Shown: positions 8,927 through 62,986 of the stretch, piece after piece | Layout of the letters: the number at the start of each line of letters is the position of its first letter | Position numbering within the stretch: position 1 is the first letter of the stretch | NCBI GenBank assembly: GCA_026770705.1 | Contig: JANJGN010000034.1 | Location: forward strand, 7,192,001 to 7,256,000 | Length of the DNA stretch: 64,000 nucleotides | DNA from: Isurus oxyrinchus | Taxonomy: Eukaryota | Direction: 5' to 3' | The notes under the pieces: model-generated | What the model was told of the DNA's origin: nothing | What the model saw: the letters and a program-made list of their open reading frames with translations, nothing else | Databases searched by the model: none | Translations under genes and position numbers: made by a program

Positions 8927-8962
8927 ATCTGAGCAAGTGCAAAGAATCTCTGAAAGCGTTTG
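8927..8962 (+). CDS. Micro-exon 3 (36 nt): (D)LSKCKESLKAF
   Basis: ttgcttgtctgaattgcag|ATCTGAGCAAG…GCGTTTG|gtgaga; LxxCxxxL paralog class. Confidence 0.85.
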
Positions 8963-9395
8963 GTGAGAGAAGTGTTTCTGAATCACGTCTAATTTTCGCC
9001 TATCTCCTCTTCAAAGAGCAATTGCTATTTGGTTCCACGGGGCATTAAATAGCTCTGTAGTGGATTGTCAGAAATCACTTGCGACTGTAATTTTGATGCT
9101 GGACCTAGTATGTCTTCGTTCTTGCCACCGAAGTTTAGATACTCTGGGGGAAAGCATGCCAGCTGAGGCCTAATTTTTGTCTTTTAAATAAAGCTGCAAC
9201 GAGTTCAAGATTACTGGGTGGAAAATCACCGTTGGTAATATGACCGAACAGGCGGCTTAGCAACCACCAATTATTATTGGTAATGTGCATGTTACTGCCT
9301 AGCTGACAATTTCAAAACAAAGAAGAATTTGCCCTACAGTAAAAACGCTTTGATTATTTCCAATTTCTTCTGGTTTGTCTTCAACTCCATAACAG

Positions 9396-9422
9396 AAGAA
9401 AAGCTCAAAGCAAGTGAGAAAG
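9396..9422 (+). CDS. Micro-exon 4 (27 nt): (E)EKLKASEK
   Basis: tttgtcttcaactccataacag|AAGAAAAGCTC…GAGAAAG|gtaatt. Confidence 0.85.
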
Positions 9423-9589
9423 GTAATTGGATTAGCAATTCATTGCATTAAGACCCAAACGGTAAATGTGTGATAATTGCTTCCTAAAGTCTTCTAGCAA
9501 ATTGAATGGTAGAAAATAACTTAGGAAGGTGGTGTCAACGTTAGAAGTTGCCTCATTCTTTGAATGGGCAAATGTACAACATACAGATT

Positions 9590-10390
9590 CGAAGCAGGTG
9601 AAGGTCAGTCAACCCCTTGAGCCTGCTCCGCAATTCAATAAAATCATAAAAACAAGTTCATCAAGTTCTGTCGAAGGGTCATGAAGACTCAAAACGTCAA
9701 CTCTTTTCTTCTCCGCCGATGCTGCCAGACCTGCTGAGTTTTTCCAGGTAATTCTGTTTTTGTTTTCAATAAAATCATAGTTGATCTGATTGTAATCTCC
9801 ACATTCACAGCTATCTCGATAACATTTCACCCCTTGCTTATCAAGAATTTATCTGCCTCTCACGATAAAGCTTTTTAAAGATTCTGCTTCCAATGAGCTG
9901 AGAGGAGGAGAATTCCAAATATTCACGACCCTCTAAGAGGGAGGGGGGAAAGCCTAATCTCTGTCTTAAATCGGTGACTCCTTGTTTTTAAATAGTGAAC
10001 CCTGACTCTAGAATCTACCATGAGGGGAAACATCCACACCACATTCATCTTGTGAAGCTAACTAATGATCTTACCTGCTTCAATCAAGCCATGCATTCCT
10101 CTTCTAAATTCCAGCTGGCACAAGCATGGTTGTCCGATTTTTCCTCTTAAAAAAACCGCCCATTTCTTCTATTAGTCGAGCAAACCTTCTCAGAAGCCTT
10201 TCTAGAGCATTTTTTAAACAATACAATAATTGTTTTTTAAACAATACAGTACAATAAATTGTACTCCAAATGTAGTCTCACCAACTGAAGCATAAGCGTT
10301 CTATTTTTTAATTCAATTGTCCTCACAATAAATGATCACATTTTCTTGTATTTCCTAATTACTTACTACACCTGTATTCTAGTCATTGTG
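9590..10390 (-). mobile_element. CR1 LINE 3' portion
   Basis: gcaggtgaaggtcagtcaaccccttgagcctgctccgcaattcaat…gaattccaaatattcacgaccctct…tactccaaatgtagtctcacc, the reverse CR1 tail and RT end. Confidence 0.7.
9649..9764 (+). mobile_element. Single-arm copy of the young Penelope/hammerhead element with 15-bp TSD
   Basis: tcaagttctgtcgaagggtcatgaagactcaaaacgtcaactc…ctgtttttgt; TSD ttcaataaaatcata at 9634-9648 and 9765-9779. Confidence 0.85.
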
Positions 10391-11421
10391 ATTCATAGAT
10401 ATAGGAAAACTATTGCCACCTTTGGGAGATTTCTAAATGAAGAGGCGATAAAGAGAATTTTAATACTGTCTCCAAAGAACGCCTTAAGAGTGTCCAATAT
10501 CTGTAATTCGCTATCACATTCTGGCAAGTTGAATTTAAGAGACGGTTTAAAAAGAATCAAATGAGCGGAATTGCAATCAGATATTTTTCTCAAGGGCTGC
10601 CTGTACCTGGAGTGGGAGGTCGTTCTACTGCTCCCTAATTGCTGGCATTATCCCATTTGGACCAATGTAGTTTTTTCTTTGCTGCACATTCTGCATTTAC
10701 TTTTTGCTTGCACCATAGTTTGAAATGAGTGATACTAATATACGTGCCTAGTTTATACACCAATCAATTTTACTGCCCATTGACTGCAATGGAACATCAC
10801 CTTAGCCAATGTGTATAATTAGCAACAAATTTGGCAATCAGCAGTCCGTTTTACACCATCGATCAAAATTTAATCACAACCATGTTATGTTCGCTTTATA
10901 AAGTACAAAGATCGCCTGAAAGTTGACGACATAAGAATGTAGCACGTGTTCTGCATCAGAGTGACATCAATCATCACCCTGTCCCACACTATGATTCGCC
11001 GGAAAATAGTAAATGTACTTGACAATTCCAAATGAAGTATCGAAATATGCATACTACACACAGTTGCATAACATTTGGTGAAAAGCAACTGGCGTTGCTG
11101 CCAAGTGCACTATGATTGATTCAAGCTCCACAGGAGCCATATGCAACATTACCTAACCTAGATTCAAACATGGAGAGTTATAATAGGAAAGCATAAATGT
11201 CACTTTAATCTGCATTTGTGGTTATACGAGTCACTTTAGGCAGATGTGATGAATTAACATTTCAGCGAGGCAATGTGTGAACTGTGTAACATAAGTGCTT
11301 CTGATGGGAAAAAAAAAATTAACATGTGTTGTCATGTATTAGAAAGGATTGGGAAGGAATAAATACAGTAAAATACCTTTTGAAGCTGAAGTGTTATCAA
11401 TGTTCCTCCTCTACATTGCAG

Positions 11422-11457
11422 AACTAAGCGACTGTCAAAACGGCTTGAAAGAGTTAG
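11422..11457 (+). CDS. Micro-exon 5 (36 nt): (E)LSDCQNGLKEL
   Basis: ttcctcctctacattgcag|AACTAAGCGACTGT…GAGTTAG|gtcaga; close to exon 56960 (ELSDCLE). Confidence 0.85.
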
Positions 11458-11769
11458 GTCAGAAAAACTCGTTTGCTATCTCACTATCGTGCTTTCCATT
11501 CAATTGGACAAGGTTTGAAAGATATTACACAATCCCCGAAGCAGAGTTCTATTCTACAAGTGGAACTGTTGCAATGACATTTAGCCTTGAAATAGGCAAT
11601 GCACGCATGTGTCCCCGGCGGTAGTAATCACTGTCCATAATACCGACATGGGAAATAATTAATGGTGCATTAAATAAAATTCACATAAAGATGTTGCACT
11701 AACTTCAATCTATTGTACAAAAATTCATCTTTGGTGCAGGAGCAAAACTGGACAGCAGCTGGACAGTGG

Positions 11770-12075
11770 ATCCTTAGGCTGCACCTTACAAACCTATAAC
11801 CACTACCATCTAGAAGGGCAGGGGAAGCAGATACAAGGGAGCAACACGACCTGGAATTACCACTCCAAGTCGCTCATGTCCCGAGTCGTTGAATATATTG
11901 CCGCTCCTTCACTGGGTCAAAATCCTGGATCTCCATCCCTAACAACACTCTCGGTACACCTACACCACAAGCCTGCTGCGGTTAAAGCGGGCAGCTCAGA
12001 ATAACCTTCTCATGGGCAAATAATGGTGGGTAATAAATGCTGCCTGAGCCAGCAAAGACCACATCCCATGCCATT
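11770..12075 (+). mobile_element. L2/Crack-type LINE 3' end
   Basis: ctaccatctagaagggcagggg…gggtcaaaatcctgga…taataaatgctgcctgagccagc…cacatcccatg. Confidence 0.65.
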
Positions 12076-12662
12076 TCTGAGCAGTAGAAAGTAATTGACT
12101 ACATCTGACAATGCTAAACAGCACAAACAGGCACACTGTACCTCCTTTATTATCTTTGCCAGTTTGAAGGTCGTATTCTAAAATGCAAAACGTTTACCAA
12201 CACAATATTGATTACTAGTTTTTCACTGTTGAAGAAAATCAAGATTCATCACATTCTCAAAGGATGGACAATTATTGCGTTCTTGACGCCATCAGAACAG
12301 GGATTTTCACTCAATGCTAATCTATGTCCCACGATGTTGATTATGATATCTAACTTTGTTAATTACAAATAATGCTCTGTTTGGAAAAGAGGGAAATGTC
12401 GACAGGTGGTGCTGATAAATAACAAAAATTTTAGGTGCCTGCCGATGGCACTGCGTTAAAAAGATATTGTTGAAAGTTAGCCATTTGGGAACTGCAATTC
12501 AAGCTTCATGCTGGAGCCGATCTCAATGAATAAAATTCTTAAATCAAAATTGTCTTTTGTCTGGCACCATTTGGATAAATGCGGTTAACAGATGCAAGGA
12601 TGGAGAGAGATTTTCCTAGATTTCCAGTGCAGCAAGGGTTTTCTTCTGACTTTGACAGTAAG

Positions 12663-12674
12663 CTCGATTGAGAG
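12663..12674 (+). CDS. Candidate 12-nt micro-exon (A)RLR
   Basis: ttttcttctgactttgacagtaag|CTCGATTGAGAG|gtaagg. Strong donor; needs the distal AAG acceptor (the CAG would give 16 nt, out of frame). 36+12+15=63 nt restores the 21-aa period. Confidence 0.3.
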
Positions 12675-12969
12675 GTAAGGAGGAATTTCTCAATGTATTT
12701 TCTTGTTTTCCACATGAATTGACACCATGGATCCACAAACAACAAATGAACAATATTGTGTACATTTCTCCTAATCTTCCGCTTATTTTAAAAGATGCAA
12801 TGTGTGTCCATTCAAAGGCCAAGGTTCTGCTAATGAATATATATATAGTCTCTAGCCTTTGGCAGATCAAATGAGCTAAACACATATTGTGCGCTATTCA
12901 GTTAAAGAAACACATCAGGGGCCGTAATTCCCTAGTTGATTCCCAAGGACAAGTCCTTGATCAATCAGA

Positions 12970-13210
12970 GTTGACCTCTGTGATTTGAATATAAACTAAA
13001 CTTGGCAGTTAACTGTAACTTGCTGGTGCATTGTCCGTGACAACATTTCGACCAATCATAGACTATTTGGCAACGAATCAGAACTCTCCTCTAAAGCAGT
13101 GTGAATTTCTGTTCCCTTTACAATTCTGTCTTCTTGTAAATTCTCCTGATGACTGCAAGATGGAAAGCGGTGGCAACATCGCTCTTTTCTCAGCAATACT
13201 CAAGTTTATT
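12970..13210 (+). mobile_element. Penelope-like element 3'/pLTR fragment (second family) with degenerate hammerhead motif
   Basis: ccaatcatagactatttggcaacgaatcagaactct…tcCTGATGActgcaagatgGAAAgc…tcttttctcagcaatact; related pieces at 43180-43325, 52180-52320 and 59810-59970. Confidence 0.55.
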
Positions 13211-13366
13211 TTTTCTAGCAAACCACGATATGTTCCATATTCTGATTTAATTTTTAGTTACTCATACTGAGCAATGTTAGAGTAAGTCCAAATTAGTTTC
13301 GTGTTCTTAGCTAACGATCCTGTACACACTCAACTCATGGTTATCCATCATTAATCTGCTTTACAG

Positions 13367-13381
13367 AAAAAGTAAAGAATG
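13367..13381 (+). CDS. Micro-exon 6 (15 nt): (E)KVKN
   Basis: catcattaatctgctttacag|AAAAAGTAAAGAATG|gtaggt. Confidence 0.75.
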
Positions 13382-14579
13382 GTAGGTGCATGCATATTTT
13401 GGAACCCGAAATTCGCAGTGTCAAAAAAAAAAACAAATGAAGTTCTGGTAGAAATGGCTTTGTATTGTAATTGATCCAGGTGAATGAGGGTTACCATTGA
13501 CAATAAACTCAACTGGCTCGGAATGCCAGAACGCTTAGCTCAACATATCCATATGCAAAGCCTGCTACATAATCTCCAAGGGATAATTTAGAATTACAAT
13601 GTGTAAATGCTCGCTCCAAAGGATAAGGGCCAGGTTAGCAATGCTGGAACATTTTGACATAATAGACTAAAGAACAGCCGGTTTGATTTAAATCTCAGTC
13701 ATCACCGTGAATATTGATTCCCTCCTGCACCAGCTCCTAGTGGCTCTAATATGTTACATCTATAAGATGCACCAAGGCAACCCAACAGTGGGCCTCTACA
13801 ACACCTTCCAAAACAGCCAATTTTTCCATCTAGAATAACAAGGGCAGCAAACTGTTTGGAACAAACCACTTGCAATTTCCGCCTGAGGTCATATGTCGTG
13901 CTGATTTGAAATGCATCACTGTTCCTTCCTCATCACCACCTTGAAAGCAAAGAGTTATCAGCACCATGGGCGTGTCTGTGCCACATGGACTGCAACAACT
14001 CATGGCAATAATTCGCCAGAAATTTCTGAACTGGAACTGCCATCAATGCTGGTCTTGACAACAACATCCGATGTCCATTCATGTCCTCACATTCCATAAA
14101 TATGTTAGCACTTCCAGGCTATAACCCCTGGGTGATTGCATTCCTGCCACATTGATCTCTTGCACTTCCAAGATTGCACATTCTTTGCCCACTTTCAGAG
14201 CCTGTGCAAATATTCCTCTGTGCCATTTCTCTGGAGTTTCATCCCTGAACGTTTCCTTCAATTCATTTCCCGTCTTTTAAGTCACTACTTCTTAATTACG
14301 TTTAACAGAATGCAAATAACAATTTGTCAGTGCAACACTTTTTCTCACTTAATGTTGAATTTTGATTCCAATAAAGGCGCAATGTTCAAGTAAATATTTA
14401 CTTATTTTGCCTTCACTACATTCAGTACAAGAACATAGGTCTTTTTAAACAGATTTGGGAAAGGAGACATTTGTGCCACAATTACGTACAGTTGTTTCAA
14501 TTCGATGAGCAACGTCGTGAAGCTTAAGTTGTAACGAAACACTAAGTACCTTTCTTCAAAACATTCTTTCCATTTTGCC

Positions 14580-15880
14580 GTACAGACTAGCAGGGGCGAC
14601 TTTGCATCGACCTGGATACCGGAAACGGCAATGGCACACACATGAATATCGACTCTTGAGTGCCCCATACTAGCATCTGTGGGTTGTGCCAAAGTTGGGA
14701 CAGCTACCTCAGACCCTAGTCAAGAACAGTCCAACACAGTCATACCACCGAAGCATCTGTTAAAACCAATGCCCCAGACAAAACCATCACGATAGCTCAA
14801 TATGTCCTGAGTCAGCAGCAGGCGGCATAGTGGCATACAGTTTACAGGTATTTGCACTGGGAGGCCCTCAATATTGATTCCTGACCCCAGAATGTTCAAT
14901 GACAAAAAGTGAATCATGGGAAATGATAAATCTTGTTGATTGTCGCCGGCTACTCCTTGAGCTCTCCCTTAGCTGATGAACTTCTGCTCATCCATTGTTA
15001 AGACCAGTGGAAGAAGCACTGAGTGTGGCAAGATCACAGAATGCACTTTGGGCAGTAACTTCAATGCCCATTGCCAAGAGTGGCTTGACTGCATTACTGA
15101 CCGAGATGGTGGAGTCCAAAAGAACAGTGAGGTTGCATTGTGCCTGCGGTAGAAAATTAGGGAAAAACAACAGCAAAACCCCTACTTAACCTCCTTCTCA
15201 TCAATCTCACTATCGCAGATACATTTGCCCATGACTGTATTGGTAACAATAACCATCTCACAGTCCTCATGGAGACAAAGCACTGTTTGAATACTGATGA
15301 TATCCTCGATTATGCTGTGTGACATTGCCACTGTGCTAAAGTGGATAGATTACCAATTGACGATGCAACTCAAAGCGGGGCATCACGAGGTGTAGTGGAG
15401 CATCAGCAGCAGCAAAATTCTTTTCAGCCACCCGATATTACCCTTGACACAGCATATCCCCTATTCTACCATTAGTAACAAGTGACGCCCAGGTTCAATG
15501 ATGAGTGCAGCACGATATGGCAGAAGTAGTGCCATGCTTACCTAATAATGAGTTGCCGACCCAGTGAAGGTACAAAACAGGAGTGCTTGCATGCAATCCA
15601 GCAGATGCAAGATGTGATAAACACAGCTAAGGGGTAGAACCAACGTTTCTGAAGTAAGATCTGAAATCCTGTCACACAGAATCGTGAATGGTCCTGGGCA
15701 ATTAAGCTACAGACTGGAGATGGAGGCTCCCCAATCATTCCATCCTCAGTGTTTGGGATCCCGTTACAACAGTGCAAAAGATAAGACTCAAGCATTGTCC
15801 AATATCTTCCAGAATTGCCGAATGGCTGATCCGTTTTGGCCACTTCCTGAGGGTCCCAGCATCACATGTGCCATTCTTCA
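14580..15880 (+). mobile_element. Decayed L2/Crack-type LINE, APE endonuclease region
   Basis: Remnants such as VEEALSVARSQNALW, PGSM/PWFN-like and AKDKTQALSNIFQNCR; homologous to 45480-46700. Confidence 0.65.
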
Positions 15881-16159
15881 ACCAAATCTATGGAGCCTAT
15901 TGGTTGGTTATTGGCGAATTCATATCCACGATGCTAAGCGGTATGCTGCTCATTTGCTGCTTTTTCGCTGATTAGTCCACAGCTTAGTTTTTGGAGGGTG
16001 CATTCTCGGAAAGCTGCAGCATTGTTTGCCTCTCTGCAGAAGTGCATGATGTGTGTGTAATGCGGAGGTAGGCTACACAAGGGGCCTGGCCTGTGCTGAA
16101 CCTGATTAGCAAGAAGCAACTTGGTTATGGTATTTTATACCCCAGATCGAAAGATGGAC

Positions 16160-18860
16160 TATCAAACATAGACGCATGAGGAGCAGGAGTAGGGGATCCA
16201 GCCCTTCGAACCTGTTCCAAAATTTTGAACAGCATGGTAGATTGGATTATCATCATATTTCAACTTTGCCATCGGACAACTTAGCACATGACGTCCTTTT
16301 CTGTCAAACGTCTTTCTAACTGCCTTGCATAAATTCAATAACTCAGTCTCCATTGCATACTGTGGAAGAAAATTCCACCACTAAACATTACTTGAGCGGA
16401 AGAATTTCTCATTTCCGTCTTAAGTTATAGACATCTTATTCTTAAACAGTGCTTCCTGCTCCTAGTCTCTCCCACAATTGGAAACATCCTCTTGCTATGT
16501 ACTCTAACAAGTCCACTCAGGGTCTCAGATATTTCTCTATGATCAAAGTTCACTTGTTTTAATCCCAATCGGTAAAGGCCAATCGTGTTCAACGTTTCTG
16601 CATAAGATCAACCCTTCATCCCAGAAATGAGTCGGGTCAACATTATCTGAACTGTTTCTAATGTAATCATATTTGACTCTTCAATTAAGGCCAAAACTCG
16701 AAACAACATTACAGATGTGGCCTCATCAGATGCATTAAACGTCCGTATTGTTGTACTCAATCCCCCTTGTAATAATTGCCAACATTCCATTTGCCTTCCG
16801 AATCACTTGCTCTAATTGAATTACAATGATTTGTTTGTCATTCGCGTCACAGGACACTCAAATCCCTCTGTGTCAGCGAGTTCTGCAATCTCTCGCAATG
16901 TATTTTTTATATTGCTTTTCTACTCTTCCTGCCATAGTGTACAAGTTCACATTTTTCGACATTATACTGATCTACCACATCTTTGTCCACTCACTGAAAA
17001 TGCCGATGTCCCTTTGCAAGCCCTCTAGCTCCTCTTGAAAACTTACTTTCTCACCCATCATGGTATCATGGGCAAATTTATCACCCTACATTTGTTAGCT
17101 TCGTCCAAATCACTCACGCAGCTTGTAAGTAGTAGCGGATCCGGCAGTAATGCTTGTGGCATTCAGTAGTTTTTATCTGGGAAAACAAATACGATCGAAT
17201 TACCCCTTCTACTTCCTGTTTGCACACCAATCCATGATCCAAGCTAATATGACACACCCCATTACATGTAATGGTATCTATTCCAGCAACTTTTGATATG
17301 GCAATTTAGCAAATGCCTTCTGGAAATCCAAGTACACCAAATCCACAGGTGCCCCTTTGTCCACCTTGTTTGTTACGACCTCATACAACTTCAATGATTT
17401 AGTTCAACACGATTTCCCTCTCACAAAAACAAGTTGACAATACCTGATTAAATTAGGACGTCATATTTATCTTGCTATAACGTCCTTAATAATGAATTCC
17501 AGCAATGTCACTCTGACGGGTGTTAGGCTAACTTTCCGGGTTTCTGTCTTCCAATCTCTTGAACAGCATTACATTATTTTTTCCCCAATCCAGTGGAGCC
17601 CTTGAATAATCCAAGGGATTTTGGAAGACTATAATGAATACACCTACGGTCACTTCAGACCCAGAGGGTTCAAGCAATCTGCTCTTGGGAACCTATCAGC
17701 CTTTACATCGAATAGATTTCCAAACAATTTTTCCCTAGTGATGGTGATTATTTTAATTTATTCCCTCCCGTTCATCTCTTCATTTTCAAGTATATTTTGT
17801 AAGTTCCCCTAACCTTCAGCATGAATGTACAAACAAAATACCTATCCATCGCCTCTGCCATTTCCATGTTTACCATCATCAGTTCTCCAGACTCTCTCTA
17901 TAAATGACGAAGGCTATCTTCAGTTACACTTTTCAAATGTATACACTTGTAGAAATTCATACTCTCTGCTTTCATATAATCAGTAAGATTTCACCAAATT
18001 TCTATTTCTCCCTCATTATTTGCTTTCTTTCTTTATTTTAGTTAGTATAATTATTTTTTCCCCTGGTTCATAATATTTGACCAATCATCATACGTAATAC
18101 TAATCTTTGAAATTTTGTACTGCTTTTTTCAGTCTGATACTATCTTTAGCTTACTTATGCAGCCTTGCATCATTATTCCTTCTCAAAGATCATTTATTTC
18201 ACAGTGGATATATCTTCTCCTGAGAGCTATTAAATGCCTTCTTAAATGTCTGCGCTGCATTTTATACATAGTTTCCCATTTGAGGTTAGTTTGGTTTGTT
18301 TTGTATTCTTCTAATTACCTTTATTCGGGTTCACAATACTAATCTTAATTCACATTTCCTTCCTGCAAATTGGACATGAAATTCTATCATGTCATGATCG
18401 TTGTCACTGACTTGCCCCTTTACAATGAGATGTTTCATTAGCCTTGTGTCATTTCCCATCACCAGGTCCAGGATAGCCTGCTCCCTGGCTGGCCCTAGGA
18501 TGAACTTGCTCTAAGAAATTGTCATAAATGCAATTTCTGAAGTGATGCTCCAGGACAGCATCTGCAAATCTGCTTCACCCAATCTACATGTACACTAAAC
18601 TATCCCATGAGCATTGAAGTAGCATTCCTGCACGTCTCATTTATTTCTTCCTGCACACCCTGTACTACCTTGTAACCTCAGCTAGGGTATCTATTAACTT
18701 ATTCCAATATTGACATCTAAACTTTACTACTTCTTTTCTACGCCCTAATAAATTATACATCTTGCTCTTTCCTGCCACCGTCATCTCCCACAGCAGTCCT
18801 AATAACATCGTGCATTAAAACACCTACCCAACAACATTCTGTTCACTTCTTATCTTTTCT
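16160..18860 (-). mobile_element. Long decayed CR1 LINE (3' tail, RT, part of endonuclease)
   Basis: ggagcaggagtagggg…cagcccttcgaacctgttcc tail; aaatgccttctggaaatccaagtacac = reverse of VYLDFQKAF. Confidence 0.8.
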
Positions 18861-19619
18861 GAAGGGCACAAGAGCCCTGTTGGTGACTTCTCGTGTTTCA
18901 TATTCCATCAACAAAATCAAGTGTTTGTGTGCGTGTCAGGACGGGGTGTGGGAGGGGGTGAGATGAGTTGCGTGTGTTGTTGAAAGAGGGTTCCAGTTAT
19001 GACGTTCATTGATGCATTGTATTCAGTGTCATGAACTGTCTGTTTGTGAGCTGATGATGTTTCTCAAACAGATGTACAGTACTCTGCTGCACAGTATGAC
19101 AGGGCAAGTAGTGATATCCGGAATTCTCTAGCAGCAGCACTCCACGTAGATCTGAGAATTTATGTTCGTAGATTATTTCTGCTTCTGATTCTTTCTGTTG
19201 CTTTCTTCAGTTGTACCAAAATGATAAAGCAGCAGTCAGAGCCATTCTCAAGCAGCTTGGGATCATGCTTTAGTCCCGGGGAACACATGTAAATATACAA
19301 TTTCGGGGCATTGATATTGTGGAGCAGAAGACACTGGATATAGATTGACTAGGATTTGACGTGAGAGGCCATGTGCTGCAGTAGACATGCAAAGTGGTAA
19401 GTGTTTGGTTAGGTTCCGGTTAAGGGTGCAGAAAGATGGAACTTGGGTAAATAGCACAAGCATCAAAGGCATTGGATTATGTTTAGGGAATTCGTTGTCA
19501 GTAGATCACTTGTATACATGTTACAGAGGGTTGTAGCGAGCACTGAGCCGTAGTCTGTTGACCAGACTTGGCCATGCACCTCTTACCACGAAATATCAAG
19601 AAACGGCTGAAGGCAATAG

Positions 19620-21120: not shown

Positions 21121-21140
21121 TATACATACTATCTCTTTGT

Positions 21141-50729: not shown

Positions 50730-51105
50730 TTTTATTATTTATCTTTCATGGGATATGGGCGGTGCTGGCAGGGCCAACATTTGTTGCTAATTCCAGGAGT
50801 GAACATTTCTGATGGTGGTTTAGAATCAACCGCATTACTGTTGATCTGCATTCTCATGTAGGCTTGACTAGGAAAGGGTGGCAAGTTAACTTCTATAAAG
50901 GGCATTCAGGAACAAAATGGATTTTTACAACAATCACTGTTGTAAATATTTATGGTTGATTCATCGACAGCATTAAGGGGGCCAGCTTTCAATTCCAGAA
51001 TATATTAATTTTATTTAAGTTCTGCCAGCTGCCAAGGTGGGATTTAAACGTGTGTTCACGAAGCATTAGCCTGGGCGTCTGAATTTTTTGGTCTGGCGGC
51101 ATGAC
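50730..51105 (-). mobile_element. Deu-domain tRNA SINE
   Basis: ttcatgggatatgggcggtgctggcagggccaacatt…ggtgggatttaaacg…agcattagcctgggc. Confidence 0.65.
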
Positions 51106-51329
51106 CAGTCTGTTCTGTCTGCATGGTCTTGAGCTCATCAACCTCAGGCTTGAGTTATTTAGTTCCCTCCACCTGTCCATTTCCAAATTTAGGATGTACC
51201 ATAAAACTTAGCTATATGTATGGCTCAATGTCAGCTCTCCTAATTTACTGCCAGTTCTAATATCTCCCGAAATATTTGGAAGTCAACTTCTGCTGGAGCA
51301 TGCGCCTGTAAAATGACTTGGCCCCATGT

Positions 51330-52320
51330 ACTAAATGGAAGCTTACTGTAAGTCTACCTTCACTGGTCAGTATACATGTTGGGATTCCTCCACGCTATAA
51401 GATTGACCTTATCAGCCATCTTGTGAATAGGGCACCAGCCATTTTCTCATTGTGCAAATATGACGTTGAAATGGGGCAAATGAAAGCTATCCTAAGGGAT
51501 AATGCCCACTCCGATCCACGCATTGTTCCTGGTGTAAAGCGTGCATTCATGATTGCGTGTAAAGCCAACACTTTGATCCATGAGAAGTGTGAAATCTAAT
51601 TCAAATTAACCAGAAAGCATAAGGCATCTGGAAAAAATTGAGCAGCAGAGGAAGCCAGTCGTTTCTATGCAGTAGCAATGCAACTGTTATTCTCTGATGA
51701 CAAGATGCTGCTGTCTAGCTAAAAGGCATTCTGCCTGCCGCACAATGCTGTATATTACTTTAAGTATGGGTGTGATGCCAGTTATGTAGTCCGTACTTCC
51801 AATGGCATAACGGATTGTAACAAACACCTCGTCTCCCTGGCAATTTTAATAAATTGAATATTGAATCTACACAGCCAACCCGTTCTTTTTAAATCTCAGA
51901 ACATTACCTCCAACGCTAGATGTGATTCTGCGATTGGGAAACGCTTGTTGAAGAACCCCGATTATGATATGATTTACGTTAACAACCAGTTAATATTGTT
52001 GGTCAAACTTGCAATGCGGCTCCCTTATGGTTGCTAGTAGTTGCATGTATTCAGAAGCAGGGAGCTGTCCTCTGTCAGCAAAAGGAACACCTCCAGAAAT
52101 TGCACATATCTTGAATTAAACAAAAGTGCGCTGTAAAATGTTTCCAGTGTCCATTATTTAAGTTAACACCTCGAGTAATCAAAGTCGAAGTGTTAATCTG
52201 CAACATTTTCTCGTACAGTATAAATTGTCGCTCCCTTTGCAATTTGGCATTCTTGCATCTGCCCTCCTGAGTGCAAGGCGAAGGCACTGGCAGAGTGTCT
52301 CTTTCTTCAGCAACATTATT
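51330..52320 (+). mobile_element. Penelope element thumb, GIY-YIG and 3' end, decayed
   Basis: RYKIDLISHLVNRA…AILRDN; tgtgatgccagttatgtagtccgtacttcc (C.A.YVGRT); tgtgattctgcgattgggaaacgcttg. Confidence 0.75.
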
Positions 52321-53450
52321 CTGCTTCCTACCACTCAGCAGATTTCGTGAGCTTCCTTTGTCAACAAGGGATTCATCATTGCTCACAAGCCTAATCTCTA
52401 ACGTCTTATCAAAGTTGTTTTTGGATGTCCACAACCACCAACGACACATCCACAGCATAATCCTAATCAAGCATATTTATTACTTTAAAAAAATTGTCAA
52501 TGGTATTTCTTAAACATGGACTGTTCTTTACAAAAACCGTGTTTATGTTTCTCAATTAATTTGCGTTTGTCCAAGTGACCATTTTGTATGTCCAGGATTA
52601 TCATTTATAAATGCTACCACCAAGGCTGAACTGGCTGAAATGGAGTTAGTGGGTTTATCCTTATGCACGATTTTTTTTATTCGATGTGCAAAATTTTCAA
52701 TCCACCAGTCCCTTTGACGAAACTCAGTTTCTGAGATAGAATGAAAAATTATGGCCAACCCCTCTGCAAATTCCGCCCTTAACTCCATCAGTATTTTCAC
52801 ATACAAACGATTTCGTCCTGATGGCGTATCAACTTTAAGTACAGAGAGTCTTCTGTATTATTTTTCTTTATCATTGTCTTCTCCAGCTAAGGTATCAATA
52901 TTTCACCTTTCACCACAACTTTGGCCGTGCCTTCGGTCCTGGTAAAGCCACGTATACAGTAGCAATTATGTTTACATCAAGCCTTCCATTCTGCCTTTAA
53001 GAGTAAACTTCACTGGTTTCCCAAATCACACCTGCTCCGCATCTTGCTATTTTTATGCCGGAGAAGATTTATTGCATCACTTTTAGATTCAGTACCTGTT
53101 TCATTAAATGTTGTCTGCTTGATGTTCTTACATACTTGCGATTTCCCCTCTGAAATTTTTATAATCAGCATGATTCTCGATTTTTTTCATCAACTTGTCA
53201 TCTGTCCTATACTTTTCTGCATATTTCACCATGCACTCTATGTTTTCGCCATCCAGTGAAACCTGGATTTGTTAGACCTATCTTTTCTCGTCCTGAATGC
53301 ACCTCGACTGTACAGGAACTATCACTTCCTTATATGCAACCCTATCTTCAACTATTTTTTAACTGCTAAGCATCTATACAAATTTACTGTGAGTGATGTA
53401 CCCTCCCTGATAATTAACCTTTTTTTTTAAACTGCGTTTTTTCCGTCATT
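52320..53450 (-). mobile_element. Decayed CR1 LINE RT
   Basis: ELRAEFAEGLAIIFHS…DWW..N…KK..KDKPTN; atcaaagttgttttggatgtcc (reverse of .DF.KAFDK). Confidence 0.7.
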
Positions 53451-55804
53451 TGTTTGCTACCGCAAACCTTACGGTAGCTTTCTTGTTTAGTCTTTCATGG
53501 CCAGCATTTATTGCCCACCTCTAATTGTCCTTGTTCAGAGATCATTTGAGAGTCAACCACATTGTTGTGGGTTTGGTGTCATATAGACGCCAGACCAGGT
53601 AAGAACTTATCGATTTTTTTTCACCCGCCCTGGTGGGATTTGAACCCAGGGTCCCTGGGATACTGGGCAGTAAAACGCTTTAGAAACTCTTTTCCCTCGT
53701 TTTCCTTTATACTATTAGCAGCTCAGTCTTTACTGATAACATTAATACCTGCCTCTATTTCTACTCACTATAACTGTAATTTACTTGCAACTCTAGGCCT
53801 GTATACTTGCCCCTTAGTTGAAGACCAACAAAAGTAACCAGGACTGTAACGTTACCTCTCTTGTCAAAATAAATATATTGTGTCCTGGACACTTCCAAAA
53901 TATCTGCTTGCACCAGAGTCTCTTAAGTCAAAATTGTCGTTTTCCCCCTTTTTCCCCTACCCCATCTTTCCTGACTAATCAGTGTAGAGGTATGGTCACT
54001 GGGCTAAAAATCCAGAAACCCATGGATGTGCTCTGGGTTCCAATCTCACCACGTCAGTCTGCTTGGCGGAGAAAAAAATAACTGGAATTGAAGGTCTGTT
54101 GATGACCATGAAACCATTGTCATAAAAAAAAAATCTGGTTCGCTTGATGACCTTATCTGGACTGGCCTACATGTGATTCCAGACTGACAGCAAAATGTTT
54201 GACTTTCCAATGCCGCCAGAAAAAGGATAGTGACACGCAAACACTTTCAAAATTCTCTTCCTCCAGTTTCGACCCACCGAGGCTTTAATTTGTGCCATCT
54301 ACATTATACATTACAGCAAAACATCATGGTTCCTTCAAGAGCATCTTCAAATCCGGTGAACCTCCAAACCACACACCATCCTGACTTACAATGGCCTGTT
54401 TATTCAATATCGCTGGTTAAAAATCCTGGAAACCCCCTTCCTAACAGCAATGTTGGTACACCTGTACCACATGGACTGCGGCAGTCCAGGAAGGTGGCTC
54501 GGCATCAGCTTCTCAAGGGGAATTATGGATGGGCAGTTAAAAATGTTGGCCCAGCCAGCAACACACACGCCCATTGAAAGAATTGAAATAGTTTTTATTC
54601 ATGAATATTTACCATCTGCCCCGGTTGAGCTAGGCATCCATTATCACCACAGCATATTGCCCTTGTTTGACCGTGCCTGCAGCTCACTAATCGTATTCAC
54701 CATAATGAGGGCATTCACACTCATGCACTGTGAAACAAAAGTAGACCTAATTGTACCCTCTCTAACTCTGACAAAGGGATCCTAACTGAGTCCAGTGCAG
54801 CACTTCTCCCCCATTTTTGTGCACATTTTTCATTCACTCATGTGTTGTCCTCTGTTTCCCACGCCCCTGATGAGTTAGCTTAAAGTCACCTGAACAACTT
54901 TGGAAAGCCGCTCCATGAGAACATTTCTGCCAGCTCCATTTCGATGCCATGTGTTCCACTTGTACTGGTCCCTCCCTTCCACAACTGCTTTTAATATCAC
55001 AAAAATCTAAATATCTCATTGCTGCGCAACGTTTTCTGCCATTAATTCATTTTTTTTCCATCCAATTACTTCAATACTCACCAGCACATGCCACCGCGAG
55101 TAATCCAGGGTTTACTACCTCCAATGTCCTCTGTATGTCTCTCTTAAACTCTTCACGTAGTTCGCATCACATTTTAATTCAATTGTATCCATTCATGTAT
55201 AAACATCGAATGCGGGCTGTTCGCTATAATCCAAAAGGAGTTTTACTGCTGCTTGCTGATATGCTTGACTCTGGCAATGGGTGGGACATACCACCTTACA
55301 GTCTCCGGCTGCATATACACCAGTTTGTTCCCTTAACTTTAGGCCCCTCTGAACTATTTATTTCCTGTCTGCAATGTACAGATGAACCAGGTTTAACTGG
55401 GACTGCACAAAGGGGGAGAATGATGCATTCAGTGAATTACTGCGCTACCTGTCTTGCCTTCCGTGGCTGCCTCGCTGTCACGCATTCAGTCGCTGCTGCA
55501 TGACCTTAACTTGCAGAGTAAACACCTCCAGACACCTGCTATCCATGGAACATCCATTTCAACTTCACTGATCCAAGAAATGACAATAGAACTGGAATTC
55601 CCACATGGGAAACATGTGCAAAGCATGGAACAGAGATTGCCTAACTCTCCTCTTTTCATTCATCTTTTAACTGACTTCACATAAGTCTACATAAGTTAGA
55701 AATAAAGAAAGGCTCACCAACTACGCACAAGTCAAGTTTTCTTTATTTGACCTGATTTCATGGACGGGGGGGGGGGTGGGGGTTCAGGTTGGGGATGATG
55801 CAGC

Positions 55805-56187
55805 GCAGTGGTGTAGTGGTGCTTTCAAAGTACCAGTTACCCACAGGCCCAGGATATTGCTCTAGGGACATGGGTTAGAAAGCCACCATAGTCACTGGTG
55901 TATTTTCAATTAGAGAAATAAATCTAGAGTATAACATTGTTTTCAGTAACTACAAGCATGAAAAATTTAGCGATTGTTGCAACAATCCCATCTGCTGCAA
56001 TGTCCTTTAGGGAAGGAAAAGTAATTATTATGTGGTCTGGCTTACTCGTTACCCCAGACGCAAATAGTTGAGTTTGGCTCTCCATTGCTCTGTAAAATGG
56101 CCCAGCAAGTCACTCAGTTGAAGGGCAATTAGAGATGGACAATAAATTTTGGCCTTGCCAGTGACACCCTTATCCAATGAAAGATTA
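55805..56187 (+). mobile_element. Near full-length Deu-domain tRNA SINE (SacSINE1-like)
   Basis: gcagtggtgtagtgg head, ggacatgggttaga, tgtcctttagggaagg, ggcccagcaagtcactcagttg, LINE-type tail gggcaattagagatggacaataaat…ccttgccagtgacacc. Confidence 0.75.
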
Positions 56188-56737
56188 AATAAGTATTCTT
56201 ATACAAACATTGAAAAATGCAAAAACGTTATTAGTTGTATACATGAACATTTTATGTACTGTTTAAGTTAGATTTTGTAAATGTAGGTATCCCTTTCTAT
56301 TTAATTTTAACATTATTGTAGATTGGTCAATTAATTGAATCCCGACTGCCACTATAGGATATATTTTCAAGTTCGTATTTGCTTTTGGGTAACCAATTGA
56401 TCTAGGCTTGCTGTACAGTTCAATAATCTCATTTTTCTTTAATTTATTAGTAGTTTAATAATGTGACATAAATTTGGGGTGCCACTATCTCCCGCCACTG
56501 TTCTTCTCTCCCATTGTATTTTGCCGCTCTGCCGCTGCCAGTAATTCGTGCTTTTTTGGAAGGCTGCTTTCTCTGGTTCTGCCATTTCCATTGCCAACAT
56601 TTCTCGTAGTATTGTTACTTGCTCCACTCTCCCGCTGTGCTTTGCTGCCTTGTTGTTAACCGTGGTCCCTGGAGTTTTTCCAAGGCTCCCTCTCCGCTGT
56701 GCTTTGCTGCCTTGTTGCTAACGATGGCTTCTGCAGT

Positions 56738-56772
56738 TCTCTCTCTCTCTCTCTCCCTCTCTCTCTCTCTCT
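56738..56772. repeat. (CT)n microsatellite
   Basis: ttctctctctctctctctccctctctctctctctct. Confidence 0.9.
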
Positions 56773-56959
56773 AATGACTTCACTTTCCTGTTTTGATTCG
56801 CTGTTCACCGTTTCAATAAACAACATGAATCAAAGCGACCTCATACCCAGGAGAAAAAAAATAAACAGAATTTGGAGGTCCACATAAAAGACCTTAAATC
56901 CAATGCAATTGCCTCAAAATGTAAGTGCTGACTTTGCGTTTTTTCTTCTTACATTACAG

Positions 56960-56995
56960 AATTAAGCGACTGCCTGGAAATTGCAAAAGGCTTAG
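56960..56995 (+). CDS. Micro-exon 15 (36 nt): (E)LSDCLEIAKGL
   Basis: gctgactttgcgttttttcttcttacattacag|AATTAAGCGACTGC…GGCTTAG|gtgcgt; branch-like ctgac upstream. Confidence 0.85.
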
Positions 56996-57799
56996 GTGCG
57001 TAGAACACTTTCATGACTGTGCACGTTTCAAGCAAGAGTCATGTTATTTCACCCTACAGAAAGCTAAGATTCAAAGATCATGTGAAACCACGGATCGATA
57101 TTCAATAGAAAACGATGAATGTTGTCCTGCTGCTGAATAAATTTTCACCAAGTAGAATTTCGAAATCTGTGCTGCAAAATACGTAGCAGCGAGGTATAAG
57201 AAATTCCTGGATGGGCAACTCTGTCAGGTCATAACCATTACTTTCTGAAATGAAGTAACTTTCTGAACACTTCACTGAATTCAAGCACGAGCGATAAAAA
57301 GAACACTTTAATCCACCAAACGATGCATCCTTATATTCGGCATAAATAGTTCAATGGAACCACTGAAGATAAACTGAAAAATGATAGACTTATAGCATAG
57401 TTACAACACAGAAAGGAGCCAATCAATCCATCGTGTCCTTATCAATTCTCTGCAGACTAACTCTCCTGGTCCCACTACCCAGGCTTTTTCCAATAGCCAT
57501 GAACTTCGGCTTTTGTTTTCTCTACAGGCAATCTTCCAGCGTTTTTGCTCAGGTCACGATTGAATCTGCCTCCTTTATATTCGCAGGCATTTACTTTCAG
57601 TTTCTAATGACATTTGCTTTAAAAATAGTTTTCCCCCTTACCATTGTTTCTCGTTTAACCAATCACTTCAAAGCCATTTGCTTTCTTTCGGGATACTTTT
57701 GACACTGTGAATAGTTTCTCTCTAACTACTCTGTCCTGTCCCTTAATGATTTTGAACACTGGCCTCAAGTCTCTTAATCATCTCCTTTCATGGAGGGAG

Positions 57800-58152
57800 A
57801 CTGTGGCATAGATCTAATTCTAGTAGACTCGTAATATAGAAGTCCAGAATAATGCCCAGAGAGCACGTTTAAGTACTACCACGACAGATAGTAGAGTTTG
57901 AATTCAATTAAGAAAATCTGAAGTCAAAACCTAGTCTCGTTAAAAAAGGATCTGGCTCACTAATGCATTGTAGGCAAGGGAATCATCCATGCTTACCATG
58001 TCCTGCGTACTTGTCACTCCAGTCCCATGTCAATGTGGTTGAGTGGTGAGTGTTCTCGGAAAGAGCCTAGCAAGCCATTTCAAGGGGGATTAGGAATGCA
58101 GAAACAAATCCTGATCTTGCCAGCGGACCCACCTCCCATGAAATAATCAATA
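57800..58152 (+). mobile_element. Deu-domain tRNA SINE inserted in a CR1 fragment (about 57385-58260, - strand)
   Basis: ctgtggcatag…gactcgtaat…ctccagtcccatgtcaatgtggttga…cctagcaagcca…cttgccagcggacccacctcccatgaaataatcaataaaa. Confidence 0.7.
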
Positions 58153-58406
58153 AAACAAAACATCCAAGGAGAACAACCAACCTTTTCCAACATATTGACG
58201 TAACTTACGTTCCTCATGCTTGTAACAATCCTCTCACTCCATCCTCTCTAATGTCTAAACCCGAGAATATGTCATAGACTAATCTGTTGCACAATCAGTC
58301 CTTATGAGGGCGACGTCCCCGCATAGCATTTGCTGCATCCTCAGCTCTGTTAATAATATCCTTCCATTAAGTTAAATTAATTACTTTATATTATGTGCTA
58401 TAACAG

Positions 58407-58433
58407 AAGAAAAGCAAAAAGCGAAGGCGTCAG
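58407..58433 (+). CDS. Micro-exon 16 (27 nt): (E)EKQKAKAS
   Basis: ttactttatattatgtgctataacag|AAGAAAAGCAAAAAGCG…TCAG|gtagct; ataacag|AAGAAAAGC identical to exon 9396. Confidence 0.8.
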
Positions 58434-60314
58434 GTAGCTACTTTAATGCTTATTCTTTGACAAAGATGCACGTGTTTAACTTTTCATTATTGGTGCTTTA
58501 AAGCTTCCATTTTTTAAACTATAATTTGCCTACAGCTTCAAAAAGTAACATGGAGGAAATTGCTCTTAGTCATGATGTGCAATGACACCATGGAGTTTTA
58601 TATTCCCGTAGGGTAGAAGTAAGAAAATAGTCCTCTTTGTCATGGAAAACAAAATTTGCACCATAATAAAAAAATATGATAATCGCTGTGTAATCTATAA
58701 GGAATTCCTTAAGACAATGGTGACAATGTGGAACTCACTGTGGAAGGATTTGGTCAGGTGAATAGAAATAGTGTTTATGGTGAAGTCGGGTAATCAGATG
58801 ATTAAACTATAGAACATTATGTTGGCACTGTGAGATGACTTTAAGCATCTGCAGAATTCAGACTGTAAGCTTAACATTTGTGCTTTACAAGTGCCACGCA
58901 ATATTCATGTCCTGCTCGAGGGGGCATGACCATATTCCCTTGTTGTTCACAGCATTTCTATTTCCGAATCCCCCACCAAAAATCATGCTTCAGCTAGTGC
59001 TCTGGACAATAAAGTTAACCAGAGACGCCACGTAAATATTATGGCTGTAAGTGTAGGTCAGGGTATTGTAATTCCCTGGTGACTAACTCACCTGAAAGCT
59101 TCCGCCTCTGTAAACCATTTCAAGGATAATCATGTGATGGAATACTTTCCAATTGCTTGAATTCTTATAGCTCCAACAGCACTTAAGTACTCGACACCAT
59201 CTAAGACAAGTAAAGCTCCTTTCCTGGCACCTTATCAAACCAATATAAAAAATTTCAGTCACTCTAACACTGCTGCTCAGTCGCAGCATTGTGTCCCACC
59301 TACAAAATACACTGGACAATCTCGCCGAGTCTCCTTGGGCTGCATGCTCCAAACCTTTAACATCTAAATCACAGACGAATAATACCTGGAGACACATGGA
59401 GCTGGTACACGCAAGGCATTTTCCAAGTCACACAACATTCTTGTTTGGAAATATATCACAGTTCTATCATCGCTGGCAGATCAGAATCCCAAAAACTCCT
59501 ACCTAACAGCATTATGGAAGCACTTACATCGCAATGATTACAACAATTCAAGAACGTAACTCAGCACAAACATCTAAAGAGGAGGTGGGAATGGTAAAAA
59601 ATGCGGACAAAAGTTGCTGGAAAATGGGACTTGCTGTCGACTTGCAATGCAATTCGAAAAAACATACCAAATTGTAAAGTGTTCATTTCCCAGGATAATG
59701 GTCCTTTTCCCAGGGCAACGCTTTGAATAATCAGAGTCAACCTGACTGATTTGAATATAAACAAAGCTGGACACTTCACTGTTATCTGTTAACTTGTGAG
59801 TTCTCCATGGCAAAGTGTCCAGCAATCAGAATCCACTTGCCAACAAATCAGAACTCTCTTTTCATGCAGTATAAATTGTTGTTCCCATCAAACTTTGGAA
59901 TCCTTGAAAATTGCCCTGAAGAGCACAAGAAGAAATACCTCCAGGAAATATGTGGCTCCTCAGCAATAAAATATTAACGACATACATTCAATAAGGAACT
60001 CAGCAGAAAAGTCAGCTCACGGAGTGGAAAAATTAGATACCCGTTCGAACAAATGATAATTGCAATGGATAGTGTAGTCACATTTAAAGAAACACTATAA
60101 AAAATATGTAAGGAATAAAAGGATATGTTCATATGAGTAAATGAAGTAGGGTGGGTGGAGGAGACTTGTATGGGGCGCAAAGACCGGTATACACCCGTTC
60201 AGCTGCAATATATGCTTCATTTTCTGTAAATTCTGTTTATCAGTTTCGAGGAGAGGCAGCAACCGTCCCTAAAATGTCAAAAAAAATCCGTAAAATTATT
60301 TTCTAATATTGCAG

Positions 60315-60350
60315 AGCTGCTTAAATGCCAAGAAGCTTTAAAGGAATTAG
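60315..60350 (+). CDS. Micro-exon 17 (36 nt): (E)LLKCQEALKEL
   Basis: attattttctaatattgcag|AGCTGCTTAAATGC…GAATTAG|gtgagg. Confidence 0.9.
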
Positions 60351-61009
60351 GTGAGGCTTGTGTTATTTTTTTGTTTAACATGCTTTTGCCAGTAATAATA
60401 GGCATATATTTATCCATCAGCATGAGCAAAAATAAAACGTTTTTATCTGTGTTCACATGAAACTGTTTATGTAAAAAATCTGCTTTGGCTATCAAGGAGC
60501 AAATAGCGACCAACTTGTTCTATGTGTTTCTTTTTTTGCAGATTCTCTAACTTAATTGCCAGCCCAAACTCATTCCAAGGCAATTAGGGATGAGCAATAA
60601 ATTCTGGCCAATCCAGCAATGCCCAAATCCCATGTATGAATACTTAAAAATTGCATGCCACCAAATGCAGAAGTTGTCATCGACCTGAATAAACGAGCAA
60701 CATTCTAGGATTTAATTATTGAAGCTATATATTGTTCTAAAAAATATTGCATGACACATTTAATTTCAAAAGTATCTTACAGATGAATTAGTGAGCTTAG
60801 TCTGATATGTTTTGTTGCATATATGTCTACATGCCTCTATGAATATTATCCCAAAGAAGAAACATTCTGCTGAGTGTGTGATCAGTCAAATTCACAAATC
60901 AAACAAATAGCTGAAACTGAGCAGAACGTACATTAATGAACATTGTCTGGGGGAGAGGGTGCTGTTTTGGGGCTATTATTCGCTTGTAAACCGGTGTCTC
61001 AGGCTTATT

Positions 61010-61322
61010 CTGTGTTCAAATCTCCAATGGCGGCTAACAGAATTTAAATTCAGTAATTAAATAAAAATGGAATTTAAATTTACTGACCATGAAACTGTTA
61101 TGTGCTGTCCGAAAACTTCATCTGGTTTACTAGCGTCCTTTAGGGTATCAAACCTACCATTCTTGTCTGGCCTGACCTACATCTGACTGCAGACCCACAA
61201 CAATGTGGTTGACTCTCCACTGAAGCCTGCAGTGGCCTTGCAATCCATTCAGTTCAAGGTCAATTAGGGATAGGCAACAAATGATGGCCTTGCCAGCGAC
61301 GCCCATGTCCCAGGAAGAATTG
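61010..61322 (+). mobile_element. Deu-domain tRNA SINE
   Basis: gttcaaatctcc…tgaccatgaaact…tctggcctgacctacatctgactgcagacccacaacaatgtggttgactct…caattagggataggcaacaaatgatggccttgccagcgacgccc. Confidence 0.8.
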
Positions 61323-62723
61323 AATGATATTGAAAAATCAATGTCAGTTGCCTAGGCAATCAAATCAAAATCCTGTTCAGCAGCTTTTAAAACGTGTCAA
61401 TATGGCATTTGCGCCACAAAGAACCAATTGTATTGACGAAATTGTCGAAGCCACTAAGGAGGGTAATCTGCCAAATGGATTTACATTGATCTGTGGGTAA
61501 TGCTAGTTTCCTGGATGAGGCATTTATCAGGGATGTTTAAACCAACACAATATATGGTAAATAATTATTTCAGCACTGGATACAATTTACTCTGCGTAGT
61601 TGTCAATAAATTACAGTAAATTAAATGTTTTGGGGCATATTACACTGAAAAATGTGACCCAACCCGGCGGCGAACACGAGTCCAGAAATATAGAATCCCC
61701 TATCATAGGAGGGGTCATAGTGCCTTTGCCAATCTATTGCGATTGCTATCCACATCTTCCAACATGATTGTAGTTTTGATAATAACCACGACTATAGTCC
61801 TCCCCTTCAAGTATTTATCGAAAGGTTTTTTTAAATGTTAGTATTGAGTTTCATTCCAACGGCCTTTATGGTCTGGCTTGCATTTCTAACCATAGCATTT
61901 TACAGCACCGTAACGTACTCAGACCTCCCATCTGCTTAATTCACCAATTGCCTTATTTATGTGCAGCTTGGTTCTCGAACCTCTGGCGAATGTATTCAAA
62001 TTCTATCATTATATTCAACATTTATGTCATATTAACCACTATCACCACCAGAGCTGATCACATGCACAAAGCCCCACAACCTCAGCACCCAACTCCATAC
62101 CCATCCCTGGCGAAATAATCTGATTGTGCACCTCAAATTTCGAGATCTAATGCATTATGGATGCATGGGATTAAGCTGCTTTTTTTTAAGGCTGCAGAGC
62201 CATGATGGGCCGAAGACCCTCGCCCATTAACATACGGAGGAATTTCCGGAAAATGCAGCGAGCCTTTCAGAAGCCCATTGACACCAGCGTGACCATAAAA
62301 ACCCACCACCATAAAATTCCGCTCATATATCTTTTTATGTCCACATGATCCTACATTTTTAATCTTTTCCACTGTAAGAACGGTCATAGCTTTTCTTTAA
62401 CTCTTCAAATTCCTGAAATCACTCCACCCTAACGCTACTGCGTTAAAACTCCTCTGCATCCTTTTCAACCCCTCGATATTCTTCCAAAACTTTGCGGTGC
62501 CGAATTAGACACGCTGCACTTGCTGCGGCTAATCAGCAATTCATTAAGTTTTTTTTCCTCTATCATAATGCTTTCCAGAGTGCTAGAGTACAGAAAGAAA
62601 TCGATCTTGGATGGTGGCGAAGACAAAATCTATACAAATGACACCTCTGTTATGAGACCAGGCGAACCATTGTTTCCACATTTTGCAATACAACGCATGG
62701 ATCGATAAACGGCTAATCGGGCC

Positions 62724-62780
62724 CCAAACATTTGGCAGCGCCAAACATTTGGCAGCGCCAAACATTTGGCAGGGCCAAAC
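62724..62780. repeat. 17-bp tandem repeat x3.3 with internal inverted repeat
   Basis: ccaaacatttggcagcg repeated; contains gccaaa-ca-tttggc. Confidence 0.9.
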
Positions 62781-62959
62781 CAGACAGGTTTTTGACGCCT
62801 TATGTGCCATAATCTTCAAATAGTAATGAACCTGGTGAAATGTTTCTATTGATATCATTTTGAGACCCTTTTTCCTTCGGTCTGTCTTCTGGAAGAAAGT
62901 GCCCACAGAACACAAAATTCTTTCAATTATTTATTCTATATAATTTTACTCCTTGACAG

Positions 62960-62986
62960 AAGATCAGCTGAAAGGAAAAGAAAAAG
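62960..62986 (+). CDS. Micro-exon 18 (27 nt): (E)DQLKGKEK
   Basis: ttctatataattttactccttgacag|AAGATCAGCTG…GAAAAAG|gtgagt. Confidence 0.9.

Follow-up and report, generated by a model that had tools for sequence, protein, structure and literature searches.

A megabase microexon array ending in a B30.2 exon in Isurus oxyrinchus, predicted to encode a segmented coiled-coil rod

What protein is built by exons so short that each of them encodes only a few turns of a coiled coil? This question is raised by a stretch of 64,000 nucleotides (nt) of the 5-Gb genome of Isurus oxyrinchus, which comprises positions 7,192,001 to 7,256,000 of contig JANJGN010000034.1 (C34 below). We call this whole stretch the window. 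An original prediction, made from the window alone, was that exon sizes encode the heptad register and that the product is an extracellular or lumenal rod or stalk with a ladder of disulfides. We found that the whole window lies inside one gene, designated here gene B, which consists of a microexon array and a terminal B30.2/SPRY exon. We regard it as about evenly balanced whether, as we propose, gene B encodes a segmented coiled-coil rod that is likely to reside inside the cell and has Cys residues in its core.

Position-weight and generic splice-site scans, together with repeat scans, revealed 16 microexons on the plus strand of the window. Seven of these measure 36 nt, six 27 nt and three 15 nt. 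All 16 are in phase 1 at both entry and exit, i.e., they are symmetric, as had been stated. Each is matched by an exon of the same length, in the same order, in a paralogue that lies some 1.03 Mb upstream and is designated here gene A (identity is 91.9% in exons and 82.1% in introns). The features are as follows; every microexon is supported both by the scans and by gene A.

1..64000, plus strand: whole window, inside gene B (array C34:6459146-7495809; B30.2 exon from C34:7496442, roughly 240 kb beyond the end of the window)
4214..4228, plus strand: 15-nt phase-1 microexon, intact counterpart in gene A; upstream of 8927-62986
8927..8962, plus strand: 36-nt microexon, Cys at d
9396..9422, plus strand: 27-nt microexon, makes three heptads with the exon at 8927
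11422..11457, plus strand: 36-nt microexon, Cys at d
13367..13381, plus strand: 15-nt microexon; 36+15 gives 17 residues, a stammer-type register break
21643..21678, plus strand: 36-nt microexon, Cys at d
27282..27308, plus strand: 27-nt microexon
27863..27898, plus strand: 36-nt microexon, Cys at d
29711..29737, plus strand: 27-nt microexon
40651..40677, plus strand: 27-nt microexon without core Leu, following another 27-nt exon; likely hinge; weak donor
41352..41387, plus strand: 36-nt microexon, Leu replacing Cys at d
50469..50483, plus strand: 15-nt microexon; register break
56960..56995, plus strand: 36-nt microexon, Cys at d
58407..58433, plus strand: 27-nt microexon
60315..60350, plus strand: 36-nt microexon, Cys at d
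62960..62986, plus strand: 27-nt microexon

Fifteen of the 16 microexons lie within 8927-62986, the one at 4214 being outside. These fifteen sum to 444 nt, i.e., 148 amino acids (aa), and not to the peptide of 171 aa predicted earlier. A search for further phase-1 segments conserved in both copies gave 20 rows; besides the 16 exons these were an alternative donor and three weak candidates at 18865, 22069 and 35511. The weak candidates are conserved in both paralogues, yet they are unlike the array consensus; our guess is that the extra residues of the predicted peptide came from them. Cys was correctly noted at residue 5 in six of the seven 36-nt exons. The next exon is of 27 nt in five of the seven cases and of 15 nt in the other two (a spacing of 17 aa). 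Because there are two such 36+15 junctions and one 27+27 junction, the window holds three register breaks.

How far does the array extend? Within 1.17 Mb examined around the window it occupies 1.04 Mb, from C34:6459146 to 7495809. We obtained 323 non-overlapping matches with a score above 12; 311 of them were kept (score above 16, no internal stop) and 12 rows were dropped, so the open frame of the array exists partly by construction. Most of the 311 exons measure 27 nt (144) or 36 nt (136), and the others 15 nt (16) or 21 nt (15). Together the exons encode 3,113 residues, only four of which are Pro. They end in G in 299 cases, and their donors are GT in 308 cases and GC in three. Matches with a score above 16 number 319 on the plus strand of the gene region versus three on the minus strand, a contrast that is partly circular because the matrices were trained on these exons; the comparison of paralogues is the independent test. 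Downstream of the array comes a terminal exon, likewise in phase 1, with an SPRY domain (E=3.4e-12), in which a domain scan did not detect a PRY domain. The closest relative of this B30.2 in the PDB is BTN3A1 (E=7e-30). Spliced into one mRNA, the microexons, at least 311 in number, and the B30.2/SPRY exon would give one rod of about 460 nm, with a predicted mass of about 380 kDa.

Is the register really encoded in exon sizes? The coiled-coil register was judged by Fourier analysis and position counts on spliced translations; the repeats are related, and the counts of register, Cys and charge given below are not counts of independent events. Over 114 36+27 pairs the hydrophobic fractions at residues 2, 5, 9, 12, 16 and 19 are 0.86, 0.96, 0.91, 0.52, 0.94 and 0.19, respectively, and they do not exceed 0.23 elsewhere; the pattern claimed for the first five of these residues is thereby confirmed along the gene. 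Residues 2, 9 and 16 occupy position a, and residues 5, 12 and 19 occupy position d; the sixth core residue (19) is mostly Lys. The peak of the hydrophobic period is at 3.45-3.5, with a power of 43 versus 16.6+/-1.7 in exon-order shuffles. The spacing between successive 36-nt exons equals 21 aa in 87 of 135 cases and is a multiple of seven in 88 of 135, versus 24.5% in shuffles (maximum 36%). The idea that exon sizes encode heptads thus holds for the period and for most spacings along the gene; the strict 36+27 alternation does not hold, as the window itself demonstrates. The remaining 47 spacings, chiefly of 30 aa (20) and 17 aa (15), are register breaks. The longest unbroken run has 14 modules, and 20 of 48 runs consist of a single module; therefore the rod is predicted to be segmented, and the 36+15 and 27+27 junctions would produce stammers and hinges. 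The g-e' charge pairs in the 114 36+27 pairs are attractive and repulsive in ratios of 48:2 and 49:4 at two sites and of 8:9 at the third. Attraction at two of the three sites suggests a parallel homo-oligomer, possibly a dimer. The rod is likely to be parallel and segmented and to carry B30.2 binding heads. By analogy with the heptad tails of butyrophilin and chicken BG proteins, it may serve as a long spacer or scaffold.

Cys makes up 3.7% of the predicted rod. Among the 114 Cys residues of the array, 111 are at d, two at a and one elsewhere, so the earlier statement that Cys occupies a core position is true gene-wide. Cys at d is found in 67 of 73 and six of seven 36-nt exons of the array centre (73 of 80 across the central 410 kb) and is scarce at the array ends (2 of 30 in the 5' part and 3 of 26 in the 3' part). 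It is likely to be a buried core residue. Disulfides in coiled coils prefer the d position. There is a different reading, which we consider tentative and somewhat less probable than an even chance: the rod may be secreted via a leader exon and may carry an interchain disulfide at d about every 21 residues, forming a cross-linked fibre with a B30.2 tip. The near-restriction of Cys to d and its regular presence in the centre argue for secretion, while its scarcity at both ends argues against it, and the Cys copies descend from one repeat and so do not provide independent support. The number of N-glycosylation sequons (12 versus 8.8+/-2.7 expected) is uninformative.

Is the giant protein made at all? 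Five related genes are present on the contig, since there are four B30.2 exons close to that of gene B (identity of 92, 58, 46 and 45%), and array-type microexons were found upstream of all four. Gene A, whose B30.2 is the one with 92% identity, spans about 1.54 Mb, and each of the 11 10-kb stretches sampled from it contained array exons; the sampled densities extrapolate to an estimate of about 380 exons. We tested 60 exons of gene A, and 53 of them aligned to gene B; 52 of these 53 are intact in splice sites, length and frame. The identity of the flanks around the compared exons is 84%, dN/dS (the ratio of non-synonymous to synonymous substitution rates) is 0.70, and Cys5 is retained in 10 of 10 pairs. 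So many intact exons despite the divergence of the flanks point to purifying selection on structure. Of the seven exons of gene A without a counterpart in gene B, four have 21 nt; the others are a 36+27 pair and a single 36-nt exon (neighbours not fetched).

Gene B originated by a tandem duplication that carried along the leader and IgV exon of a neighbouring gene. The leader of this extra copy is intact, and a stop and a frameshift disrupt its IgV exon, which is the only IgV that we found upstream of gene B. Gene B retains the 5' region of gene A (6433690-6455835), after which there is a jump of 240 kb. The deletion cost gene B the 111-nt exon of gene A and at least 29 array exons. This loss, the broken IgV copy alongside and a dN/dS of only 0.70 are what one would expect if gene B were a decaying, 5'-damaged duplicate, or if it gave only shorter sub-transcripts, and the giant protein were not made. 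We consider this unlikely: although the flanks have diverged by about 16%, 52 of 53 exons retain their length, their frame and both splice sites, and the B30.2 frame is intact. In addition, we noticed no internal terminal exon in the 1.04-Mb array, although no dedicated search for one was made.

Does the family exist elsewhere? A profile search among 1.84 billion representatives gave 4,168 matches at E<=0.001. The strongest named single-domain matches belong to Scyliorhinus, Leucoraja, Narcine, Cetorhinus, Chiloscyllium and Callorhinchus, all of which are cartilaginous fish. In a midpoint-rooted FastTree tree of 157 domains the family forms one long-branched clade (16 tips, support 1.0) with no RING or immunoglobulin (Ig) motif, separate from the RING- and Ig-bearing B30.2 matches. 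The homologues are automatically annotated as TRIM39-, TRIM58- or TRIM69-like, and most of their database records are short models of the 3' end that bear TRIM-like names; no RING or B-box was found in the five homologues that we scanned. A chimaera model of 1,697 aa has the same coil, the same Cys flanking and the same SPRY end. The flanking is identical in 11 of its 22 Cys residues versus 5.6% expected, which is a further point for a secreted, disulfide-linked rod. Protein word-index searches gave no matches among longer proteins (this search is a weak one), two near the length of the query and one for the skate protein. A feature search of the ESM Atlas with chimaera residues 1-700 gave scores below 0.8 throughout. 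No description of the family was found in the searched open-access literature. Beyond the family, B30.2 exons of a more distant kind form a very large cluster at C21:82-118 Mb, to which most of the 150 matches listed belong; among the matches listed, two C21 exons at 89.7 and 91.3 Mb are nearer to the family of gene B.

How does the length of such a rod change? A four-exon unit of 42 aa (six heptads) is present in seven tandem copies upstream of the window, and a unit with 15-nt exons has been amplified there likewise. As both kinds of units are amplified, register-keeping modules dominate genomic change but are not obligatory. Since all exons are of phase 1-1, an exon block can be gained or lost without a shift of frame, and rod length would be tuned mainly through duplication and deletion of exon blocks. 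The family illustrates the evolution of protein length by exon copying under a register constraint. It had been pointed out that skipping of a 36+27 pair, which removes 21 residues, would leave the register unchanged, while skipping of a single exon would break it. In eight comparisons of RefSeq isoform models from three homologues, all of them predicted models of distant relatives, four differ internally by 6, 9, 9 and 9 residues, none by 21, and the remaining four differ at the N-terminus; one of the 9-residue differences is the linker before B30.2. These differences do not favour paired skipping, and it is in genomic duplication that register-keeping units are seen to be used.

Where would the product of gene B reside? 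Of 70 open reading frames (ORFs) of at least 78 aa upstream of genes A and B (C34:4820001-4860000 and 6430001-6460000), none matched an Ig, RING or B-box family. Motif scans of wider upstream stretches found no Ig domain belonging to gene B, and no transmembrane (TM) exon was found upstream of its array. Since the TM exon at 7524026 comes after the B30.2 stop, we attribute it to the neighbouring IgV gene. Upstream comparisons revealed no leader exon common to genes A, B and C and none for gene B. A conserved block ending in a donor is common to all three, and stops in its gene C frame indicate a likely non-coding first exon. Several leader candidates for genes A and C were dropped as not common to the paralogues, and a 75-nt candidate exon at C34:6457734 was dropped as a genome-wide repeat. 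The in-frame ATG in the first array exon of gene B, the upstream region free of Ig, RING and B-box hits and the loss of the 111-nt exon favour a leaderless cytosolic product; we hold a cytosolic location to be neither more nor less probable than its opposite.

Several observations weigh against an intracellular rod. The 111-nt exon of genes A and C opens with ten conserved hydrophobic codons, AV[MI]LA[IL]EVA[RK], and contains synonymous changes upstream of the first ATG that gene C has in this exon (both judged by eye). Such a translated-looking motif suggests that another coding exon, possibly that of a leader, lies farther upstream. The likeness of this exon to the chimaera protein is also one seen by eye only, BLASTP with the exon of gene A being not significant (E=2.5). 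The skate and chimaera models XP_055510696.1 and XP_042192744.1 start with 13-15 hydrophobic residues that look, by eye, like signal peptides. The intact phase-1 leader of the duplicated IgV gene, at C34:6421428, lies upstream and could splice onto gene B. The restriction of Cys to d and its conservation across cartilaginous fish seem to exceed what core packing needs. Finally, no transcript over gene B exons was seen in RNA contigs of four same-species runs: the contigs matched only repeats in 3800-23700 of the window and none lay on the B30.2 exon; nor was any RNA record listed for 8800-13500 of the window. These results say nothing on expression.

Secretion is also suggested by the leader-tail-like motif in genes A and C and, in gene E, by a candidate first exon that is short and hydrophobic and has a strong donor. 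There is, moreover, the precedent of vespryn (ohanin), a PRY-SPRY protein with a signal chain (PMC4566206), whose N-terminal extension is short and which has no giant coiled coil. The absence of a leader exon common to genes A, B and C argues against secretion, and gene B has no exon bearing a leader-like tail. Six other homologue models lack the hydrophobic start, though they may be 5'-truncated. The heptad logic of the predicted extracellular rod has been upheld, and the evidence on its location points both ways: no leader was found in gene B, versus signal-peptide-like starts in two homologues. It is conceivable, though we lean slightly the other way, that cartilaginous fish possess an undescribed family of secreted half-micrometre rods with a disulfide every three heptads and a B30.2 head; their megabase genes would contain between 300 and about 380 microexons, and the rods would change in length by module copying. 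A secreted product would represent a novel type of extracellular fibre, one that is laddered by disulfides and headed by B30.2.

The same hydrophobic N-terminus could instead be an uncleaved anchor that tethers a cytosolic rod to the membrane, in the manner of a BG or butyrophilin tail that lacks Ig domains. In the chimaera a basic cluster comes immediately after it, as the positive-inside rule favours. We consider an anchor very improbable: the stretches are only 13-15 residues long, acidic residues follow in the skate, and the relevant exon is lost from gene B. The chimaera homologue also has basic motifs resembling the furin consensus after its hydrophobic start and a tandem 10-residue acidic/Thr repeat in mid-protein. 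Genes E and C are arranged head to head (C34:3997802 on the minus strand and 3998419-3998658 on the plus strand), their candidate first exons being about 600 nt apart; a bidirectional promoter is possible.

To which known system is gene B closest? On the features tested it is not a member of the butyrophilins, BG proteins, TRIM proteins or tetherins. TRIM proteins, whose B30.2 is intracellular, share the coiled coil and PRY/SPRY with it, but neither RING nor B-box was found in the upstream ORFs of genes A and B or in the five homologues. Enterophilins are cytosolic mammalian proteins with an extended leucine zipper of about 30 heptads, B30.2 and no membrane anchor. Tetherin (BST2), to which the predicted rod had been likened, is a parallel coiled coil with core Cys, an N-terminal TM segment and a glycosylphosphatidylinositol (GPI) signal. 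The position of 113 of 114 gene B Cys at a or d is similar, but gene B ends in B30.2 instead of a GPI signal, no N-terminal TM segment was found, and it is about 30 times longer, so the likeness does not extend to the protein as a whole.

Butyrophilins form juxtamembrane coiled-coil dimers (PMC12841164, PMC10665462) and have an intracellular B30.2 (PMC12841164, PMC4046983); BTN2A1 has an interchain disulphide, the position of which is not stated in the passage that reports it (PMC11969061). They resemble gene B in having heptad repeats followed by a terminal B30.2, in line with the PDB match to BTN3A1. They differ in that no IgV/IgC or TM exon was found in gene B (70 upstream ORFs, motif scans), that gene B has about 445 heptads' worth of sequence versus a few, and that its B30.2 lies in its own clade. 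Chicken BG proteins, which include the zipper protein, have long cytoplasmic coiled-coil tails made of many small exons, 13-36 exons of 21 or 24 nt, their number varying between genes (PMC4046983). BG proteins carry a single IgV and a TM segment and are described without B30.2; in gene B no IgV or TM was found, and B30.2 is at the end. Gene B also has at least 311 exons, mostly of 36 and 27 nt, and 21 nt is the size of only 15 of 311. Heptad-encoding exons have a precedent in BG; we found no account of the 36+27 split, of the scale or of the ladder of Cys at d in the searched open-access literature. By analogy, gene B may be seen as a heptad tail of the butyrophilin or BG kind that is hugely extended and bears a B30.2 head, yet it belongs to neither family, and it bears on the origin of such tails in jawed vertebrates. 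Human titin has 363 exons (PMC3575840). Even on a cautious reading, gene B with its 311 predicted microexons and terminal exon, and gene A with its estimated 380, would be among the most exon-rich genes known, rivalling titin.

In the neighbourhood, the leader, IgV and TM gene at C34:7510720-7524148 has a V-set domain (E=1e-10) and is weakly PVRIG-like. Several Ig C2-like exons, Siglec/CD22-like by eye, lie on the minus strand at C34:7540181-7547923, and a frameshifted fragment resembling a G-protein-coupled receptor by eye is located between genes A and B at C34:6415857. Within the window a 26-nt tandem repeat (5.3 copies, 8759-8897) ends about 30 nt before the acceptor of the exon at 8927. 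Interspersed repeats, which we take to be short and long interspersed elements (SINE/LINE), are located at 7506-7803, 9654-9766, 21161-21258, 48334-48524 and other places, and the same-species RNA contigs pile up on the first three of them.

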